From Solirubrobacterales bacterium (GTDB lineage: Bacteria > Actinomycetota > Thermoleophilia > Solirubrobacterales > Solirubrobacteraceae): 64,000 bases of DNA. Numbering within the stretch: the stretch's first letter is position 1; each line of letters opens with the position of its first letter. Shown here in pieces: positions 2,231 to 9,407 of the stretch. The stretch spans positions 19,290 to 83,289 of the forward strand of contig JBDZVZ010000004.1 of the NCBI GenBank assembly GCA_040255945.1, in the 5' to 3' direction. The notes below the pieces were generated by a model. The model saw nothing but the letters and a program-made list of their open reading frames with translations, was not told where the DNA came from and did not search any database. The translations under genes were made by a program, and so were the position numbers.

Positions 2231-3493
2231 TCAGCCGGTCCCGGCGCCGGCCCGGTAGTGGTCGAGGACCGTCGTCGGATCCAGGACCGTCGTGTAGACG
2301 GCGACCTCGTCGAGTCGGCCGTTGAAGAAGCGGCTCCCGGTGCGCAGGCCGCCGAAGCGGATGTCGCTGGGCTTGTTCAGCGACTGCGTGCCGCCGGTGC
2401 CGGTGGCGACCTGGCCGCCGTCGACGTAGAGCGCGAGCGCCCCGGTCGAGCGCGTGCGCGTGAAGACGACGTGATGCCAGGCGCCGTCGTTGTAGCCCGG
2501 TCCGGACGCGATGGTGGTGCCGGAGGGGCCGACACCCGCCCGGATGACCCCGTTGGGTCCGAACGACGTGCCGAAGTCCTGGTTGTTGGTCAGGAACGAG
2601 TCGTCGTCGGCGTCGACGAGACCGTTGTAGTTGAACCACTCGGTGCCGCTGCCGGACCCGGCCGAGGTGGCGCGCAGCCAGAACTCGATCGAGAAGTCGT
2701 CCTGGATCGGCCGGTTCGCGGTCGTCGCGTACTGGCCGCTGCTGCCGTCGGTCGCCATCGCCGTGTTCGTGTCGCCGGCGAGCGCGCCGGTGACCCCCAG
2801 CGTCGGGTAGACGGTCCAGGTGATCCCGAACCAGAAGCCGTTGTAGGAGCCGTCCGTGCCGACCTCGTTGACCATCGTCGAGCTCGTGTCGCCCAGCCGC
2901 CAGTAGCCGGCGAGGCCGGTCGTCGCCGTCACGACGCTCCTGTAGCTCTGGATGGTGACGTTGAAGGGGACCGGCCCCGTGGAGTTGCCGTAGACGTCGG
3001 TGGCGGTCACCGTCCAGCTCTGCGTCGTGCCGGTCAGCAGCCCGGTGAGCGCCGTGAGCAGCGGGCTTCGGTAGTTGTAGGTCTTGCCGCCGATGGTCCA
3101 CGGCCCACCGACGGACGTCAGCGTCGTCTGGCCGAGCAGGAACGTGCCTGTGTCGGCGGTGACCGAGGCGACGCCGCTGGCGTCGGTGACGTTGGCGTAG
3201 AAGCGGAAGTCGGCACCCTGCCGGATGACGCCGAGCAGGCCGCCGACGAGCGGGAGCGAGGCGGCCCGCGCCGCCGACCGGCTGCGCGCGGCACTCGCGC
3301 GCGCGGCGTCGGTGCCCGTGTAGGTGGTGCCGTCGGTGATGAGCGGCCCGTTGTATTCGGGCGCCGACGAGAAGCTGTTGACGCCGTTGGACGTCGTGGC
3401 CGTGAACGCGGCGAGCGCGCCGCCGATGCCGGAGCCCGCGACGATGAGGGCGGCCGCGAGCGCGGCGCGACGCGAGATGCGTGACGCCCTCAC
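2231..3493 (-). CDS. secreted LamG/ConA-like lectin-domain protein with SipW/TasA-type N-terminal region and Ig-like middle domain
   Basis: The GTG start at 3493 overlaps the upstream stop (GTGA). N-terminus: RASRISRRAALAAALIVAGSGIGGALAAFTATTSNGVNSFSS. C-terminal LamG motifs: DDFSIEFWL, WHHVVFTRT, LALYVDG, LDEVAVYTTVL. It is a paralog of the C-terminal part of the upstream gene. Confidence 0.8.
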   Translation of the reverse strand: MRASRISRRAALAAALIVAGSGIGGALAAFTATTSNGVNSFSSAPEYNGPLITDGTTYTGTDAARASAARSRSAARAASLPLVGGLLGVIRQGADFRFYANVTDASGVASVTADTGTFLLGQTTLTSVGGPWTIGGKTYNYRSPLLTALTGLLTGTTQSWTVTATDVYGNSTGPVPFNVTIQSYRSVVTATTGLAGYWRLGDTSSTMVNEVGTDGSYNGFWFGITWTVYPTLGVTGALAGDTNTAMATDGSSGQYATTANRPIQDDFSIEFWLRATSAGSGSGTEWFNYNGLVDADDDSFLTNNQDFGTSFGPNGVIRAGVGPSGTTIASGPGYNDGAWHHVVFTRTRSTGALALYVDGGQVATGTGGTQSLNKPSDIRFGGLRTGSRFFNGRLDEVAVYTTVLDPTTVLDHYRAGAGTG

Positions 3494-5355
3494 GGCCCAC
3501 GGCCCTCCCACGCCATCGTCGCGCTCGCGGCCTTCGACGTCGAGTTCGGGTCGGTGCTCAGGGCGACGTCGAACCGGTAGCTGTGCGTCTCGCCGGTGAT
3601 CCACGTCTCGGCCGCGCTGCGCACCGCGTCGAAGTGGGCCTTGACGTCGGCGGCGCTCAGGACGCGGTTGTAGACGGCGATCTCGTCCAGCGCGCCCGCG
3701 TAGTAGTTCGTCCCGGTCAGCGTCCGCCCGATCGACAGCGACGAGGGCTGGGTCAGCGAGGCGGTGCTGGCGCCGGTCAGGCTGCCGGCGGGCGAGCCGT
3801 CGACGTAGAGCGCCAGGGTGCCGCTCGCCCGCGTGCGCGTGAACACGACGTGGTGCCAGACGCCGTCGTTGTAGCCGCCGGAGGCCGACAGGACGGTCTT
3901 GTCCGGGTTGCCGGTGCCCGCGGCGACCCGGCCGTCGGAGCGCAGCGCCACGCCGAAGTCGTTCCAGGCGCCGCTGAGCTCGCCGTCGACGAGGCCCGCA
4001 CCGCCCCACCACTGGGCATCGGTCCCGATGCCCTGGGTGGACTTGAACCACAGCTCGATCGAGAAGTCGTCCTGGATCTGCCGGGTGACGTTGATGTAGT
4101 CGTTGACCCCGTCGAAGCTCGCTGCCCGGTCGCCGTCGCCACCGAGCGCCCCGGTCGTCGCCGTCGGCCCGTTGTTGTAGGCCTGATGGTTGGTGCCCTT
4201 GCTGTCGCGTGCGGTCGACAGCGGCGAGCTGTCGATGAGCCGCAGGTTGTCGACGTGCAGGCCGGCCGCGTTGGACTGGACGGCCGTGCTGCCGGCGTCG
4301 CCGATCTGGACCCCGGCGCGGCCGGCCGCGGAGATCGAGGCGTCGGTTGCGCTGATGCGCTGGGTGCCGTCGACGAGCACACGGATCGTCGACCCCTGCA
4401 GGTCCAGGCGCAGTCGATGGCTCGCGCCGGCCAGCAGGCGCTCGTCGGAGGTGCCGAGCGTCGTCTCGACGCCGTTGACACGCTTGACGAGCTGCCACTG
4501 CGTGTCCTTGTAGCGCGCCAGGTAGTAGGTGCCGTTGGCGTTGGCGGTGTCGAGGCGCCCGACGACGCCGGCCGCATCACCGGCCAGGCGCGACTTCACG
4601 TACAGGTCGGCCTCGACCCGGTAGTCGGCGGTGGCCGGGGCGGCCGACGCGTAGGCCAGCCCGCCCCCGGAGCCGCTCTCACGCAGGCGGTTGGCGTCGG
4701 TCAGGACGAGGTTGTCGGCCAGCGACGGGTGCTTCGTCCACGTCGCGGTGCTGTCGGCGGTGTGGCTCGTCAGCAGCGTGCCCGCGGTCCCGGCGAAGCT
4801 GTCGAGCAGCTTCGGGTCGCCCAGGCGCCAGTACGAGACGAGGCCCGGGTCGGCGAGGACCGTGGAGGCGTAGGTGCTGCCGGCGCGGTCCTGGTCGCCG
4901 GGGTCGACGAGCCCACTCGCCCAGCTCGACGGGTAGCCCGAGAGCGGCCCGCGGTAGAGCACCCCCGAACCGGCGCCGGCGTAGTTCACCGTGTCGGCGG
5001 TGAACCCGGCGCACGAGTCGAACGCCGCGGCGCCGCTGCCGCGGGTGACCGTGAGCGTGAGGTACGGCGCAAGCGCGCCGCTGGGATCGCCGTACTCACG
5101 GACCGTCGCGGGCAGCGTCCCGGTCGACGTGACGTTGATGCAGCTCGTGTCCGTCGTCCCGCCGGGCGCCGACGCCATGCCGAGCATGGCGCTGCCGGCG
5201 TCGTTGTCGGTCAGCGCGACGCTGCCGACGCGCAGCGAGTTGCCCGGGTTCGTCGTCGTGCCGACGAGCGCGGCGTATGTCACGCCGCCGGCGGCGGCGG
5301 CCGCCGCGACGACGAGCACCGCGACGAGCAGGCGCGCCGGGCGGGCGCCGATCAT
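3490..5355 (-). CDS. TasA/camelysin-like domain protein interrupted by two ConA-like (jelly-roll + LamG) modules
   Basis: ATG 5355 overlaps the sipW stop (ATGA). The N-terminus MIGARPARLLVAVLVV...YAALVGTTTNPGNSLRVGSVALTDND and the C-terminus THSYRFDVALSTD...ATMAWEGR match the small TasA-like protein at 6395-6988. The internal LamG motifs are DDFSIELWF, WHHVVFTRT, LALYVDG and LDEIAVYNRVL. Confidence 0.8.
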   Translation of the reverse strand: MIGARPARLLVAVLVVAAAAAAGGVTYAALVGTTTNPGNSLRVGSVALTDNDAGSAMLGMASAPGGTTDTSCINVTSTGTLPATVREYGDPSGALAPYLTLTVTRGSGAAAFDSCAGFTADTVNYAGAGSGVLYRGPLSGYPSSWASGLVDPGDQDRAGSTYASTVLADPGLVSYWRLGDPKLLDSFAGTAGTLLTSHTADSTATWTKHPSLADNLVLTDANRLRESGSGGGLAYASAAPATADYRVEADLYVKSRLAGDAAGVVGRLDTANANGTYYLARYKDTQWQLVKRVNGVETTLGTSDERLLAGASHRLRLDLQGSTIRVLVDGTQRISATDASISAAGRAGVQIGDAGSTAVQSNAAGLHVDNLRLIDSSPLSTARDSKGTNHQAYNNGPTATTGALGGDGDRAASFDGVNDYINVTRQIQDDFSIELWFKSTQGIGTDAQWWGGAGLVDGELSGAWNDFGVALRSDGRVAAGTGNPDKTVLSASGGYNDGVWHHVVFTRTRASGTLALYVDGSPAGSLTGASTASLTQPSSLSIGRTLTGTNYYAGALDEIAVYNRVLSAADVKAHFDAVRSAAETWITGETHSYRFDVALSTDPNSTSKAASATMAWEGRGP

Positions 5356-5849
5356 GACGCCCCGCCCACGACCGCCTCCGCCCGTGCGCCGCGCACGGTC
5401 GCGCGCAGCTCGAGCAGGGCGAGCAGGAAGAGCGGCGTTGCGAGCAGAAGCGCTCCTGCCGGGCCCGAGCGCGCCGCGAGCACGAGGTGGCCCACGAGCG
5501 GGACCCGGTAGACGACCCGCCCGATCCGCCCGTCGGCGGCGACCGTCCAGCGCTCCGGCACGTCGTTGGCGTCGCCCTGGGTGATCATCGCGCGCCGCGC
5601 CCCGGCGGCCTCGCCGGAGACGAGGCGGTGGGTGATGAGCCGGCCCGGGCGCGCGGGGTCGGCGAACGTCACGATGTCGCCGCTGCGCGCCTGTCCGGGG
5701 TGGATCGGCAGCGCGACGACGAGGTCGCCGCGGTGCAGCGTCGGCGCCATGCTGCCCGACAGCACCGTCGCGGGCCGGCCGCCGAACGGGACCGTCGCGA
5801 CCGTGAGGAGCAGCAGGCCGACGGCCAGGCCGGCCACCACCATGGCCAT
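5352..5849 (-). CDS. sipW: signal peptidase I, archaeal/ER (SipW) type
   Basis: 165 aa: an N-terminal TM, SGSMAPTL (catalytic Ser box), GDIVTF, LITHRLV (His box in place of the Lys of the LepB type), ITQGDANDVPE, and a C-terminal TM. Confidence 0.85.
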   Translation of the reverse strand: MAMVVAGLAVGLLLLTVATVPFGGRPATVLSGSMAPTLHRGDLVVALPIHPGQARSGDIVTFADPARPGRLITHRLVSGEAAGARRAMITQGDANDVPERWTVAADGRIGRVVYRVPLVGHLVLAARSGPAGALLLATPLFLLALLELRATVRGARAEAVVGGAS

Positions 5850-5875
5850 GACGCCGATGAGCGTCCGGGCCGGCC

Positions 5876-6376
5876 TCAAGGCGCCGGCTCCCAGCGCGGG
5901 ACGAGCTCGAGGGCGACGTCGAGGCGGCGGGACTCGTAGCCGGTCCGGACCTCGCCCGGCAGCCAGGCGCGCACCGACAGCGGCGCACGCCCGCCGGGCG
6001 CGAGCCGCAGGCGGGGCGGCTGCCAGCCGCGCAGGACGTCGAGCGTTCCGGAGAAGAGCGTGTGGGCCCCGCTGGTCACCCGGACGCGCACGAGCCGGTC
6101 GGCGCGGTCGGCCGGCGGCATCGCGCGGAACCGCAGGCGCAGCGGCTGGCCGGTCTCGTTGACGACCGTCGTCGAGCCGGCCGCCGGGGCGCGGCCCGGG
6201 CGCAGGTCCCCGAAGCCCGCCAGCCGGCCCGCCGGGCGCACGTCCAGCGGCCCGCTGCGGTTGACGAGGACGCTGAGCGCCATCCCGTGCGGCTCGGGGC
6301 GCGCCGGGAGCCGGGCGAACGTGACCGGGGCGGTCGCCGCCGCGCCGAGACCGACCAGAAAGGCGATGCGTCGCAT
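5876..6376 (-). CDS. secreted hypothetical protein of the SipW/TasA-like operon
   Basis: Signal-like N-terminus MRRIAFLVGLGAAATAPVTFA. The remainder looks beta-rich (PLRLRFRAMP, LVRVRVTSG, LSVRAWLPG, DVALELV). I recognise no family. It sits between the tasA-like gene and sipW. Confidence 0.6.
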   Translation of the reverse strand: MRRIAFLVGLGAAATAPVTFARLPARPEPHGMALSVLVNRSGPLDVRPAGRLAGFGDLRPGRAPAAGSTTVVNETGQPLRLRFRAMPPADRADRLVRVRVTSGAHTLFSGTLDVLRGWQPPRLRLAPGGRAPLSVRAWLPGEVRTGYESRRLDVALELVPRWEPAP

Positions 6377-6394: not shown

Positions 6395-6988
6395 CTAGTT
6401 GCTGCGCGCCTCCCAGGTGAAGGTGTGCGAGCCCGTGCTCTGGACCGACGTATGGTTGTTGGCCACCGAGTCGTCCTTGGCGGTGAGCGTGAACCGGTAG
6501 GCCACGTTGTCGTTCTGGTTCCAGGCCGCGGCGGCCGCCTTGCCGTCGACGCCGCCGGCCCAGTCGGTGCCGAGCCCGGCGAGCGTCCCGCTGTAGGCGG
6601 TCGAGCTCGCGGCGAAGTCGCCGCAGCTCGGGAAGGCGCCCGTCGTCTGGGTGCCGCGCTCGATCGTCAGGTCGAACGCGCCCCCGTTCGTCACGCCGCT
6701 GCTGACGTAGAGCTTGACCGCGGCGTCCAGCGAGCCGGTGTAGGTGACCTTGAGGCAGCGCACGACCGCCGGGTCGCCGGGAGCGAGGTCCCCGACCGCC
6801 CCGGAGGTGTACATCGCGACGTTGGCGCCGTCGTTGTCGCTGATCGCCACCGAGCCGGCGCTCAGGCTGTTGCCCGGGTTGGTCGTCGTCGCGGTGAAGG
6901 CGGCGAAGACCCCGCCCGCCGCGAGGACCGCGACGGTCGCCAACCCGCCGATCACCCCCAGGAGACGGCGGTGTTTCTGTATCCCCAT
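6395..6988 (-). CDS. TasA/camelysin-like secreted protein with SipW-cognate-type N-terminal region
   Basis: MGIQKHRRLLGVIGGLATVAVLAAGGVFAAFTATTTNPGNSLSAGSVAISDND resembles the TasA/camelysin (SipW-dependent) N-terminal signature. About 197 aa. An alternative GTG start lies at 7009. Confidence 0.75.
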   Translation of the reverse strand: MGIQKHRRLLGVIGGLATVAVLAAGGVFAAFTATTTNPGNSLSAGSVAISDNDGANVAMYTSGAVGDLAPGDPAVVRCLKVTYTGSLDAAVKLYVSSGVTNGGAFDLTIERGTQTTGAFPSCGDFAASSTAYSGTLAGLGTDWAGGVDGKAAAAAWNQNDNVAYRFTLTAKDDSVANNHTSVQSTGSHTFTWEARSN

Positions 6989-7054: not shown

Positions 7055-7876
7055 TCAGGACGCCGCGCGCCACAGCTCGCCGCCGAGGACGCGCTCGACC
7101 GCGACGGCGAAGTCGGCCGCCAGCGCCCAGAGCTCGGCGGCGGCGCGCGGCCACGGCAGGCCGCAGGCGGCGGCGACCTCGGCGGTCGTCAGCGGGCCGA
7201 GCCCGCGCACGGCGTCGGCCACGCCCGGCAGCGGCCCGGGCTCGCCTCCCGCGGCGGCGACCGCGTCGCGCAGCTGCGCCGGCGTGACCTTGCCCGACAG
7301 CCAGCGCGGCCGGCCGCCGTCGGCACTGACGGCGAACGTCGGGAACGCGGCCCGCGGCGGCTCGGCGGTCGGCGACCGGACCGCCTCGGGCGCCGATCGT
7401 GCGCGCTCGAGGTCGGCCCCGAACGCCTCGGCGATGGCGTTGGAGTGCAGGTCGATCGCAAACCGGGCCAGGTCGAGCCCGTCGACGCCGCGCGCGACCT
7501 CCTCGAGCGCGTCGGGGCTGTCCTGGGCGGCCCCGCGCAGCCAGAAGCCCTCGCGCAGCAGGCGCAGCAGCGGGCCGTCGAGGCGTTGCTCGGCGGCTGC
7601 CTTGACCGCCAGGCAGGCGGGGTAGGTCGACCGCGGCGGCCGCCCGCCCTGCCCGAGCCACGAGCGCGGATCGACCGGCATCCCCGACCACGCGGACGCG
7701 TCGAGCGCCTCGGGCACCTCGTGGGATGGATCGTCCAGGTCACGGGCAAGACCTCCCATGACGTAGGTGATCCGCACCTGGTCGGCGAACTCCGAACGGA
7801 GACGAGCCACTGCCGGCTCCGTCGCCCACGACCAGGGACAGGCCGGATCGGTGATGTACGCGACATGGACCCCCAC
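7055..7876 (-). CDS. DsbA-family thioredoxin-fold protein (CxxS variant)
   Basis: VGVHVAYITDPACPWSWATEP carries a CPWS motif where DsbA/FrnE proteins have CPWC. No signal peptide. The start is uncertain: GTG 7876, or GTG 7915 as in the ORF track. Confidence 0.65.
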   Translation of the reverse strand: MGVHVAYITDPACPWSWATEPAVARLRSEFADQVRITYVMGGLARDLDDPSHEVPEALDASAWSGMPVDPRSWLGQGGRPPRSTYPACLAVKAAAEQRLDGPLLRLLREGFWLRGAAQDSPDALEEVARGVDGLDLARFAIDLHSNAIAEAFGADLERARSAPEAVRSPTAEPPRAAFPTFAVSADGGRPRWLSGKVTPAQLRDAVAAAGGEPGPLPGVADAVRGLGPLTTAEVAAACGLPWPRAAAELWALAADFAVAVERVLGGELWRAAS

Positions 7877-7895
7877 GGAGCCCCACAATAGAGGC

Positions 7896-9407
7896 GTGAG
7901 CTCGCAGGTCGGCACCCTGCTGAATGGCCGTTACCGGCTCGATGCGCGCATCGGGACCGGCGGCATGTCGACCGTCTACCGCGCGTTCGACACTGTTCTG
8001 GAGCGTCAGGTCGCGATCAAGCTCATGCACCGCGAGATCGCCCGGGACTCCGACCAGCTCGAGCGCTTCCGCCGCGAGGCGCGCGCGGTCGCCCAGCTCA
8101 ACCACCCGCACATCGTCACCGTCATCGACGCGGGCGAGGACGACTCGGCGGGCCTGGGCGGCGGGACGCCGTTCATCGTCTTCGAGTACGTCGACGGCGA
8201 GACGCTCAAGCAGCGCATCCGCCGCTTCGGCCGCCTGCCGGTGCCGGAGGCCATCGCCTACGCGATCGAGGTCGCCCGCGCGCTGGGCATCGCCCACGAC
8301 CGCGGCATCGTCCACCGCGACGTCAAGCCCCAGAACGTCCTCATCGACCCGGAGGGCTCGGCGAAGGTCACCGACTTCGGGATCGCCCGCACGCTCGACC
8401 AGGAGGGGCTGACCGCCGACGGGCGCGTGCTGGGCACGACCGACTACGTCTCGCCCGAGCAGGCCCTGGGCCATCCGGTCACCGGCCAGAGCGACCTGTA
8501 CTCGCTCGGCATCGTCCTCTTCGAGATGCTCACCGGCGACGTCCCGTTCAAGGGCGACAACCAGGTCGCGGTGGCGATGAAGCACGTCCGCGAGGACCTG
8601 CCCGACATCCAGCTGCTGCGCCCCGAGGTCTCCAGCGCGCTGGCCGCCGTGCTCGAGCGGGCGACCGCCAAGGACCTCGAGCGCCGCTACGCCGACGACC
8701 GCACGTTCATCGCCGAGCTCGAGGAGTGCCTGGCGATCGAGACGGCCCGCACCGGCCAGGTCACCGGCGAGGCGACCGCGGTCCTGCGGACGCTGCCGCC
8801 GGCCGCCCGCCGCCGCCTGCCGACCCGGATCACACACCGGGGCCGCGCGCTCGCATCGGTGGCGGTCGTCGCGATCGCGCTGGCGGTCGTCGCCGTCGTC
8901 CTGCTCGGGCGCACGGAGCGCGGCACGAGCCAGCGGCCGGTCCAGCCGGCGTCGCCAGGGCTCAGCACCGTCTCGCTGGCCCAGTCCGGCGCCCACGACT
9001 ACGACCCGCTCGGCGACAACCACGAGGAGCACCCGCAGGAGGCCCGGCTCGTCCTCGACGACAACCCGGCCACGTCGTGGTCGACCGAGACGTACCGCAG
9101 CGGGCTGGGCGACAAGGCCGGGGTCGGCATCTACGTCGACGCGCGGCCCGGCACGCCCGGCAAGGTGCTCGGCATCCGCACGCCGACGACCGGCTGGAAG
9201 GGCAAGGTCCTCGTCGCCAAGAACGGGCCGCCGGCGAGCATCGACGGCTGGCAGGACATCGGCGCGGCGATCGACGCCACCAGCACGAAGATCTCGGTCC
9301 CGCTCGACACCGCCGGCCAGGACTTCCGCTATTACCTCGTGTGGATCACGCAGCTGCCGCCCAACGGCGACAAGGTCGAGATCTCCGAGATCACCCTCCA
9401 GCACTGA
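7896..9407 (+). CDS. Ser/Thr protein kinase with single TM and extracellular discoidin (F5/8 type C)-like domain
   Basis: Hanks motifs GTGGMSTVY, AIK, HRDVKPQN, DFGIA, SPEQ. TM LASVAVVAIALAVVAVVLL. The C-terminus DDNPATSWSTETY...GIYVD...FRYYLVWITQLP...VEISEITL is discoidin-like. GTG 7896 follows GAGG; an alternative ATG lies at 7854. Confidence 0.85.
   Translation: MSSQVGTLLNGRYRLDARIGTGGMSTVYRAFDTVLERQVAIKLMHREIARDSDQLERFRREARAVAQLNHPHIVTVIDAGEDDSAGLGGGTPFIVFEYVDGETLKQRIRRFGRLPVPEAIAYAIEVARALGIAHDRGIVHRDVKPQNVLIDPEGSAKVTDFGIARTLDQEGLTADGRVLGTTDYVSPEQALGHPVTGQSDLYSLGIVLFEMLTGDVPFKGDNQVAVAMKHVREDLPDIQLLRPEVSSALAAVLERATAKDLERRYADDRTFIAELEECLAIETARTGQVTGEATAVLRTLPPAARRRLPTRITHRGRALASVAVVAIALAVVAVVLLGRTERGTSQRPVQPASPGLSTVSLAQSGAHDYDPLGDNHEEHPQEARLVLDDNPATSWSTETYRSGLGDKAGVGIYVDARPGTPGKVLGIRTPTTGWKGKVLVAKNGPPASIDGWQDIGAAIDATSTKISVPLDTAGQDFRYYLVWITQLPPNGDKVEISEITLQH

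Follow-up and report, generated by a model that had tools for sequence, protein, structure and literature searches.

Filaments of the TasA superfamily are emerging as cross-domain, chaperone-free donor-strand biofilm fibres. The best known system is the TasA/TapA/SipW set of Bacillus subtilis (PF12389; fibre structure PDB 8AUR), in which TasA is cleaved and polymerises by donation of its N-terminal strand, and TapA has been proposed to retain only a donor-strand-like N-terminus (PMC9674648). A second system is the haloarchaeal Tat-fimbriae (tafi: TafA, TafC, TafE, TafF and the TafD peptidase), likewise donor-strand filaments of the TasA superfamily with a signal peptidase I in the cluster. Its minor subunit TafC, a putative adhesin placed at the filament tip in the published model, pairs a pilin-like β-sandwich (residues 1-146) with a laminin G-like (LamG) domain (residues 203-360; PMC11821415).

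Lectin-type jelly rolls are also grafted onto filament subunits in PilC of Streptococcus sanguinis, a type IV minor pilin (PDB 7OA8/7OA7), and in two-domain adhesins of the FimH type, where neither the filament scaffold nor the assembly machinery is related to those described here and the module sits at an end of the pilin instead of being inserted. In tip adhesins of sortase pili, such as pneumococcal RrgA, the adhesive domain is inserted in a stalk β-sandwich and the chain returns to finish the stalk; these pili differ in their covalent polymerisation by sortase, their CnaB and vWA folds and their occurrence in Gram-positive cocci, and share no homology with the present proteins.

The window, by which we mean the whole 64,000-nucleotide stretch from a Solirubrobacterales bacterium that was analysed, contains an operon comparable to these systems. 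One of its products, P0001, is probably an accessory subunit of a SipW-dependent fibre of the TasA superfamily, with its sandwich in two pieces around a 424-residue cassette of carbohydrate-binding type in a surface loop.

Gene organization

Five genes, all on the minus strand, are given here in the order of transcription.

6395..6988, minus strand: P0002, small TasA-like protein, 197 aa (AlphaFold2 model, Foldseek, PF12389 matches within its family)
5876..6376, minus strand: secreted protein of 166 aa with a signal peptide of the ordinary kind; its gene belongs to the core of these operons
5352..5879, minus strand: signal peptidase I of the SipW/archaeal type (TIGR02228)
3490-5355, minus strand: P0001, ATG at 5355, stop at 3490-3492, 621 aa
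2231..3493, minus strand: P0004, 420 aa (HMM match at residues 14-43, Laminin_G_3)

The start codon of P0001 overlaps the stop codon of the peptidase gene (ATGA), and the start of P0004 overlaps the stop of P0001 (GTGA). The gene for P0001 is thus translationally coupled to that of the SipW-like peptidase (TIGR02228, E 2.1e-21, 76.4 bits against a cut-off of 51.85) within a conserved five-gene operon, whose order (small TasA-like gene, 166-aa gene, peptidase, split subunit, P0004) is kept in two differing genomic neighbourhoods. An archaeal-type signal peptidase gene in the operon and a SipW-type leader, with a predicted cleavage site, on P0001 are both features by which the TasA family is recognised. 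Also as in TasA, the leader ends in (T/V)(Y/F/W)A|A(F/L); next come a short strand and the motif G-(S/T)-(V/L)-x-(L/I). The locus differs from the B. subtilis system in its actinobacterial host, in an extra conserved gene for the 166-aa protein, and in lacking direct Pfam or PDB matches to TasA.

Homologues of the 166-aa protein adjoin TasA-like genes in approximately 25 fetched loci. It shows just a weak, colinear likeness to the TasA-like core (hhalign 48%, E 2e-4); at that probability, its identification as a TasA-like domain without a donor strand was set aside.

The small TasA-like protein

For P0002, presumed to be the major fibre subunit, the prediction of the TasA fibre fold is of high confidence. 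Its AlphaFold2 model (pLDDT 91) is a jelly-roll sandwich whose best Foldseek match is the TasA fibre subunit 8aur_A (E 5e-5, probability 1.0, TM 0.45/0.40), followed by other donor-strand filaments. Neither P0001, P0002 nor the spliced N- and C-terminal pieces of P0001 match PF12389 or any TasA model in NCBIfam, and a search of PDB sequences with the profile of the small family returned no TasA chain, only chance PKD-like matches. Membership of the superfamily therefore rests on transitive homology and on the predicted fold: 58 of the 114 members of P0002's homologous family match PF12389 (best E 5.6e-10), and one relative is annotated "TasA family protein" by its source. The NCBIfam model for TafC (NF052521) scores P0001 at 19.7 bits against a cut-off of 410, and in the LamG part only, so that P0001 is not a member of the TafC family.

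A TasA-like domain in two pieces

P0001 was divided as follows.

5272..5355, minus strand: residues 1-28, signal peptide of the SipW type (alignable with the P0002 leader and those of its family)
4900..5271, minus strand: residues 29-152, predicted donor strand and N-terminal strands of a TasA-like β-sandwich (BLASTP, HMM, hhalign)
4813..4899, minus strand: residues 153-181, left junction and cassette leader (S)TYASTVLADPGLVSYWRLGD, a leader that recurs elsewhere
4222..4812, minus strand: residues ~182-378, first module, a jelly roll of the ConA/LamG type whose predicted fold resembles CBM66 (Foldseek, weak Laminin_G_3)
3628..4221, minus strand: residues ~379-576, Laminin_G_3 (LamG) domain ending in AADVKAHFDAVRS (Pfam PF13385, Foldseek)
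3493..3627, minus strand: residues 577-621, AAETWITGETHSYRFDVALSTDPNSTSKAASATMAWEGRGP, last two β-strands of the TasA-like domain (hhalign, HMM)

An earlier note on this DNA had proposed that residues 1-155 align with the small TasA-like protein. They do: residues 2-149 of P0001 match residues 1-147 of P0002 in BLASTP (38% identity, E 2e-19), profile-profile comparison of the N-terminal piece gives 99.8% probability (hhalign, E 4e-29), and an HMM of uninterrupted relatives matches residues 8-156 with an E-value of 4.9e-55. The cysteine pair that the note listed as shared, C72 and C115, is invariant in the P0001 orthologues and the small family. By analogy with TWA|AF of TasA, cleavage of the leader is predicted at GVTYA|ALVG. 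The predicted donor strand that follows, ALVGTTTNPGN, is identical to the corresponding strand of P0002 at 8 of 11 positions, and is succeeded by SLRVGSVALTDND. It lies in the stretch best conserved between P0001 and P0002, where 16 of 20 residues of TTTNPGNSL..GSVA..DND are identical against 38% overall.

The likeness of the last ~39 residues to the C-terminus of P0002, also claimed at first reading, is not significant in pairwise BLAST, where it is present only inside an alignment with E=16. Pairwise alignment of 6395-6988 with 3490-5355 thus recovers the N-terminal piece, and profiles are needed for the C-terminal one. With these the claim holds. Residues 577-621 of the orthologues match residues 153-197 of P0002 (hhalign, 98%, E 3.5e-14) and the uninterrupted close relatives (99.2%, E 2e-19), while a reversed-sequence control gives approximately 1% probability; the HMM of uninterrupted relatives finds the piece with an E-value of 1.7e-11. 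The small-family HMM aligns with P0001 in two colinear segments, residues 9-149 to model positions 11-143 and residues 575-616 to positions 143-188, and the same two-piece pattern is seen in all nine P0001 orthologues. When the pieces of P0001 are spliced together they align over the full length of the family (E 1e-57 to 2e-74). The nine full-length orthologues are 44-85% identical, with an invariant C-terminal motif in which E583, W585, E589, H591, A610, T613 and W616 do not vary.

Ten uninterrupted relatives (P0063, P0343, P0345, P0291, P0285, P0328, P0226, P0256, P0318 and P0288), with N-domains 50-59% identical, run from W(A/S)xG(I/L)xDP into ETWTTxExH(S/A)Y(K/R)F...WEAR without a break. 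Against these P0001 shows a single private block of 424 aa, residues 153-576, in close agreement with the ~420-aa insertion of the earlier note. By sequence comparison, each piece of P0001 is homologous to its own part of a domain that runs unbroken in the neighbouring gene and in close relatives; the parts follow in order and do not overlap.

In the P0002 model the insertion point corresponds to a well-ordered loop on the surface (~K150/A151), with strand 126-135 before it and the final two strands, 161-170 and 190-196, after it. Placement of the insert in a loop before the last β-strands of the fold, as first suggested, is thus strongly supported by homology, including the single private block. 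The alignment of the uninterrupted relatives and this ordered loop also argue, at the alignment level, against fortuitous similarity of the terminal ~40 residues. The AlphaFold2 model of P0001 itself, built from a 10-sequence alignment, has a pLDDT of 65 (~50-70 in the TasA part) and a pTM of 0.44, with low-confidence strands at 590-599 and 609-619 in the C-terminal piece. It is too weak to establish whether the N- and C-terminal pieces pack against each other or to define the fold, which we infer from homology to P0002. When the orthologues were aligned in MAFFT together with the small proteins and the cassette proteins, the C-termini of the small proteins were spread across the insert, and this alignment was not used for AlphaFold.

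The inserted cassette

The insert consists of a Y..V...GLVSYWRLGD leader, with SYWRLGD at residues 174-180, a ConA/CBM66-like module and a Laminin_G_3 domain. It had been described as carrying two jelly-roll/LamG modules. This stands for the second, which matches Laminin_G_3 (PF13385) above the gathering score at residues 416-572 (94.7 bits against a cut-off of 27.6, E 7.7e-27) and whose Foldseek matches are laminin LG pairs. The first module (YRVEADLYV...) stays below the Laminin_G_3 cut-off (20.7 bits, E 4.8e-4); in the predicted structure, of which it is the best part (pLDDT 75-94), it resembles CBM66 4b1m (Foldseek; TM 0.82, rmsd 2.4 Å, 171 columns, 18% identity). The likeness to CBM66, the fructan-binding module of B. 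subtilis SacC, is a resemblance of predicted fold only, and "lectin", as applied to either module, is likewise a fold-level label.

The same leader precedes LamG in the C-terminal fusions P0063, P0343, P0199 and P0206, and is found in P0004 and in the pseudopilin fusion P0050, a prepilin-type protein with the identical type of cassette. PilC 7oa8 is itself among the Foldseek matches of the P0001 model (E 5e-8). In many relatives LamG is appended behind the TasA-like domain with no interruption. The insert is a self-contained mobile cassette, found elsewhere C-terminal to the same domain or on a pseudopilin. Uninterrupted actinobacterial relatives (P0063, P0343, P0345, P0291, P0285 and P0328) share with P0001 the TasA-like subfamily (N-domain identity up to 59%), a Y..V...YWRLGE leader and LamG. 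They differ in their order of sandwich, leader and LamG, whereas in P0001 the cassette lies inside the sandwich and has an extra module.

A doubly nested arrangement, with the first module inside LamG, was considered because in single-LamG relatives the LamG body follows the YWRLGD leader directly. We set it aside as unproven; a DSxxG motif flanks the first module on both sides, so that the leader strand may belong to this module and the two stand in tandem.

P0004

P0004 has a SipW-type leader and a donor-strand motif (AAFTATTSNGVNSFSS), followed by an Ig-like segment, the YWRLGD leader and a LamG domain (Laminin_G_3, E 1.5e-20). The family HMMs match it only at residues 14-43, and it is without a TasA-like acceptor domain. 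With a donor strand and no sandwich it resembles a tip protein or TapA, for which the same reduction has been proposed (PMC9674648).

Recurrence of the split form

Insertions at the same site were found with one module in P0347, L047 (a Quadrisphaera MAG) and L103, all of which lack the first module, and with two modules in L035 (a Solirubrobacteraceae MAG), L040 (a Patulibacter MAG), L101 and L102. Split genes thus occur in Solirubrobacterales relatives as well as in the Patulibacter and Quadrisphaera MAGs, and the split form is kept with intact reading frames across several actinobacterial lineages. A word-indexed search with residues 25-160 of P0001 returned seven proteins. Our literature search turned up no account of a TasA-like domain that another domain interrupts, and the split subunit is likely to represent a recurring, undescribed way of placing probable adhesin modules on TasA-type fibres.

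Two irregular sequences were encountered: relative L036 is frameshifted, and the database protein P0011 is a read-through fusion.

Proposed role

TafC is the closest analogue of P0001, from which it differs in that LamG lies behind the sandwich, where the insert of P0001 precedes the last two strands and includes a second jelly roll, and in that tafi depend on Tat export. The accessory subunits of this locus also depart from TasA, CalY and TapA in carrying LamG-type domains, which in P0001 interrupt the sandwich; none such has been described there.

As a SipW-dependent accessory subunit, P0001 would be cut after Ala28 by the SipW-like peptidase once exported, and the freed strand ALVGTTTNPGN would insert into the next TasA-like subunit, in the manner of B. 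subtilis TasA. The sandwich of P0001 (residues 29-152 and 577-621), closed by the returning C-terminal hairpin, would take a strand from another subunit, possibly P0004. The two jelly-roll modules would project sideways from the loop and could bind glycan on a surface, another cell or the matrix, thereby making the fibre an adhesin comparable to the tafi filament with LamG-bearing TafC at its tip. Both incorporation into a fibre and sugar binding are what we infer for P0001.

A protein that is simply secreted or wall-associated, in which the TasA-like sandwich is just a scaffold for the lectin modules and the operon partners act independently, seems unlikely. It would suit the many LamG cassette proteins with unrelated N-termini and the stability of self-complemented monomeric TasA (PMC9674648). 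Conservation is nevertheless highest in the predicted donor strand; the coupling to sipW and the five-gene order in two genomic contexts, together with the retention in P0004 of the donor-strand motif alone, also argue for a fibre subunit.

Quite improbable is a three-dimensional domain swap, by which the hairpin 577-621 would complete the sandwich of a neighbour, so that subunits could also polymerise or be cross-linked through their C-termini. The halves of P0001 are separated by 424 residues and both receive low confidence in its model, and in the TasA fibre C-terminal residues contribute to the contact between subunits (PMC9674648); the hairpin is, however, contiguous and intramolecular in the P0002 model, which is confident, and loop insertions usually leave the parent fold whole. 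That the split is an artefact, of chance C-terminal likeness or of a chimeric or misassembled ORF, is scarcely credible, since the failure of pairwise BLAST at the C-terminus, the frameshift in L036 and the fusion in P0011 are outweighed by the profile statistics and their reversed control, by HMM positions that are exactly colinear, by nine orthologues that are intact and come from independent samples, and by split genes in MAGs and genomes of separate studies.

Returning to P0001 as a fibre subunit, we mention as a tentative and rather doubtful extension that insertion in the loop was perhaps selected because it keeps the donor strand at the N-terminus of the sandwich and the contact edge at its C-terminus both unobstructed, so that P0001 might co-polymerise along the shaft as a multivalent lectin array. 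With P0004 and possibly an acceptor-only 166-aa protein, Gram-positive actinobacteria would then have a polar assembly line that needs no chaperone and runs from initiator or tip through lectin subunit and shaft to terminator.

The locus bears on how TasA-superfamily fibres gain binding specificity. Actinobacteria have at least two routes for grafting ConA/LamG-type modules onto the subunit, appended and inserted, and the cassette turns up again on proteins resembling type IV pilins. As a natural experiment, the split form points to a loop of the TasA fold that tolerates insertion, which is of use for engineering cargo-displaying fibres, and P0001 is a tractable candidate adhesin for the little-studied soil Thermoleophilia. 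No concept is overturned, lectin-bearing tip subunits having already been proposed for tafi and being well known in other pili.

Distribution

A second locus of the same genome encodes a TM-anchored TasA-like protein, which resembles the membrane-anchored terminator of tafi. The distribution of the TasA-like system is patchy, a point against reading P0001 as a fibre subunit: among 61 relatives a full-length match is confined to the genome of the window, and any TasA-like gene is present in six of 41 family genomes.

Operon organization

The fibre operon consists of five closely spaced genes, all on the minus strand of the window (GC ~72%). Together with their neighbours, these are:

7055-7915, minus strand: DsbA-like thioredoxin gene (Thioredoxin_5, E 1.7e-16), directly upstream of the operon
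6395-6988, minus strand: small TasA-like protein P0002, 197 aa
5876-6376, minus strand: 166-aa secreted protein with an ordinary signal peptide
about 5352-5879, minus strand: signal peptidase, archaeal/SipW-type model TIGR02228
3490-5355, minus strand: split TasA-like protein P0001, 621 aa
2231-3493, minus strand: P0004, 420 aa
218-1892, plus strand: fliW, csrA and flagellin genes, adjoining the operon

The stop codon of the peptidase gene is overlapped by the start of the P0001 gene (ATGA), and the stop of the latter by the start of the P0004 gene (GTGA). The peptidase scores 76.4 bits against TIGR02228, above the cut-off of 51.85. A 74%-identical orthologous locus preserves both the order of the five genes and the flanks, and a 50%-identical one preserves the order in a different neighbourhood. 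In the orthologous locus L019 the fliW/csrA/flagellin adjacency is retained inside a larger flagellar cluster, and the DsbA-like gene again lies directly upstream of the operon. Two Cys of the TasA-like domains are invariant (C72 and C115 in P0001, C78 and C122 in P0002), which makes a disulfide plausible. About 25 of the loci retrieved have a member of the 166-aa protein family beside a TasA-like gene. The protein resembles the TasA-like core weakly, though colinearly (hhalign 48%, E 2e-4), and may be an acceptor-only or chaperone-like component.

A TasA-like domain in two pieces

Neither P0001 nor P0002 matches PF12389 directly, and 58 of the 114 members of the P0002 family do. A model of P0002 from the 114-sequence alignment (pLDDT 91) has as its closest PDB match the TasA fibre subunit 8aur_A (E 5e-5), followed by TLP-1a, the Sulfolobus thread, Pyrobaculum bundling pili, cannulae and chaperone-usher pilins, which are donor-strand filaments.

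The colinear likeness of the P0001 N-terminus to P0002 that the earlier note described is borne out by BLASTP (residues 2-149 against 1-147, 38% identity, E 2e-19) and by comparison of the orthologue and small-family profiles (99.8% probability, E 4e-29). The resemblance also claimed for the C-termini does not reach significance in pairwise BLAST alone; in profile comparisons (hhalign) it is clear, the last 45 columns of the orthologues matching P0002 153-197 (98%, E 3.5e-14) and the subfamily of uninterrupted close relatives (99.2%, E 2e-19), with a probability of about 1% for the reversed segment. In an HMM of 38 small-family members, P0001 residues 9-149 correspond to positions 11-143 and residues 575-616 to positions 143-188, so that the second match resumes exactly where the first ends, and every P0001 orthologue shows this two-piece pattern. 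When spliced, the N-piece (residues 29-152) and C-piece (577-621) align over the entire family length (E 1e-57 and 2e-74). The observation itself is confirmed.

Relatives were collected by searching the representatives exhaustively with P0002, which gave 1271 clusters at E <= 0.001, and by a regional search. They include proteins with an uninterrupted TasA-like domain that is 50-59% identical to the N-piece; these run '...SWSAGIEDPTSGAAETWTTSEKHSYQF...FLWEARN' (P0343, P0063 and others). When P0001 is aligned with ten such proteins by E-INS-i, one block of 424 columns (residues 153-576) is found in P0001 only; it opens 'TYASTVLADPGLVSYWRLGD' and closes '...AADVKAHFDAVRS'. A LamG cassette normally starts and finishes in this way. 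Many of the uninterrupted relatives have the cassette appended after '...WEARN' (P0063, P0199, P0206, P0285, P0291, P0328, P0343 and P0345), and in P0004 it forms the C-terminus. The event is therefore a clean insertion of the entire cassette into a loop.

The equivalent site in the P0002 model (about K150/A151) is a confident surface loop, preceded by strand 126-135 and followed by the last two strands (161-170 and 190-196). For P0001 the model as a whole has low confidence (pLDDT 65, pTM 0.44), but it shows the corresponding strands at 590-599 and 609-619. That the two pieces form one sandwich is supported by homology, not by a confident three-dimensional model, and the placement of a lectin-type insert before the last beta-strands, as originally suggested, is supported at the sequence level.

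The inserted modules

Residues 416-572 of P0001 are a Laminin_G_3 domain (E 7.7e-27), and module 1 (about 182-378) matches the same family weakly (E 4.8e-4). Module 1 is the best-predicted region of the AlphaFold model and superposes on B. subtilis CBM66 (4b1m; TM 0.82, rmsd 2.4 A). In structure comparison the two modules together resemble laminin LG4-5 pairs, and the matches further include PilC, a minor pilin of S. sanguinis that bears a lectin module. The D-S-x-x-G motif typically following the YWRLGD leader flanks module 1 on both sides:

about 4780-4809, minus strand: LLDSFAGTAG, P0001 183-192
about 4183-4212, minus strand: ARDSKGTNHQ, P0001 382-391

Module 1 may therefore be either nested within the LamG domain or a tandem LamG-like domain owning the leader strand.

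As a whole the cassette, which makes up about 67% of the query, occurs in dozens of otherwise unrelated actinobacterial proteins. One of these, the metagenome protein P0050 (947 aa; JGI name pseudopilin PulG), carries the identical leader, ConA-like and LamG cassette at its C-terminus behind a prepilin-type N-terminus (…GLSLIEVLIAMVL…); thus one cassette has been grafted onto two unrelated filament scaffolds.

Distribution of the split form

Nine orthologues of P0001 (44-85% identity) were recovered intact over their full length, and none departs from the C-terminal motif E-x-W-x3-E-x-H-(S/A)-Y ... A-x2-T-x2-W-E. The names given to the best homologues indicate Solirubrobacterales. Further split genes share the insertion site of P0001, with a two-module insert in MAGs of Solirubrobacteraceae (L035) and Patulibacter minatonensis (L040) and in two genomes belonging to the same family as the window (L101, L102), and with a single LamG insert in P0347, a Quadrisphaera MAG (L047) and L103. 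The distribution is patchy: among 61 related species genomes a full-length P0001 match occurs in the window's own genome only, and TasA-like genes of any sort are present in just 6 of 41 genomes of the family. A 1009-aa protein (P0011) is a read-through fusion of P0001-like and P0004-like genes, and a MAG copy of the split gene (L036, 5923-7750) changes frame inside the insert; both probably reflect pseudogenes or mistakes in sequencing or assembly.

Proposed fibre assembly

In B. subtilis the leader is cut off by SipW, TasA residues 28-38 enter the next subunit as donor strand, and the first strand of the fibre is thought to come from TapA (PMC9674648). The predicted donor strands of the operon are AFTATTTNPGN (P0002), ALVGTTTNPGN (P0001) and AFTATTSNGVN (P0004). 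P0001 and P0002, 38% identical overall, agree at 16 of 20 positions in TTTNPGNSL..GSVA..DND. P0004 has a SipW-type leader and an 11-residue donor-strand-like motif (9/11 identical to that of P0002), behind which come an Ig-like segment and then a LamG domain; it matches the family HMM over residues 14-43 only, that is, leader and donor strand. On this strand identity and restricted match we base the following scheme, which is plausible. P0002 would build the shaft; P0001, with both donor strand and acceptor sandwich, would be a polymerisation-competent subunit carrying two glycan-binding-type modules on a side loop; and P0004, which has a LamG of its own, could start or cap the fibre as a donor-only protein of the TapA-like or tip kind. 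Comparable ORFs with a donor strand only are located downstream at L018, L065, L069 and L103.

Among described systems the haloarchaeal tafi come closest. In TafC, their minor tip subunit, a TafA-like sandwich (1-146) precedes a laminin G-like domain (203-360), and the same cluster includes a signal peptidase and a terminator anchored in the membrane (PMC11821415). The laminin G-like domain of TafC follows the sandwich, whereas the cassette of P0001 interrupts it, and P0001 does not belong to the TafC family (19.7 bits against a cut-off of 410). No description of such an interruption was found in the searchable literature; the split form, a variant in architecture of a system whose kind is known, is conserved and previously undescribed.

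Other TasA-like loci of the genome

A second locus of the same genome (L016, contig C107, 2017-5152) has the gene order of the window operon: a TasA-like gene, a 170-aa gene, sipW, and a TasA-like gene whose product has a linker rich in Pro and Thr and, at its C-terminus, a transmembrane helix. This last protein resembles the tafi terminator and is likely a membrane anchor or terminator comparable to TafF; a protein of this type also occurs in a relative (L018, 6492-8006). At a third locus (L017, contig C114, 269-2020) a solitary TasA-like gene is divergent from an adjoining RCC1-repeat beta-propeller gene, the product of which has an N-terminus (…TDAAFVAQTASTGSTWSAGT) resembling a SipW-type leader and donor strand, which suggests that other cargo may be hooked onto TasA-like fibres.
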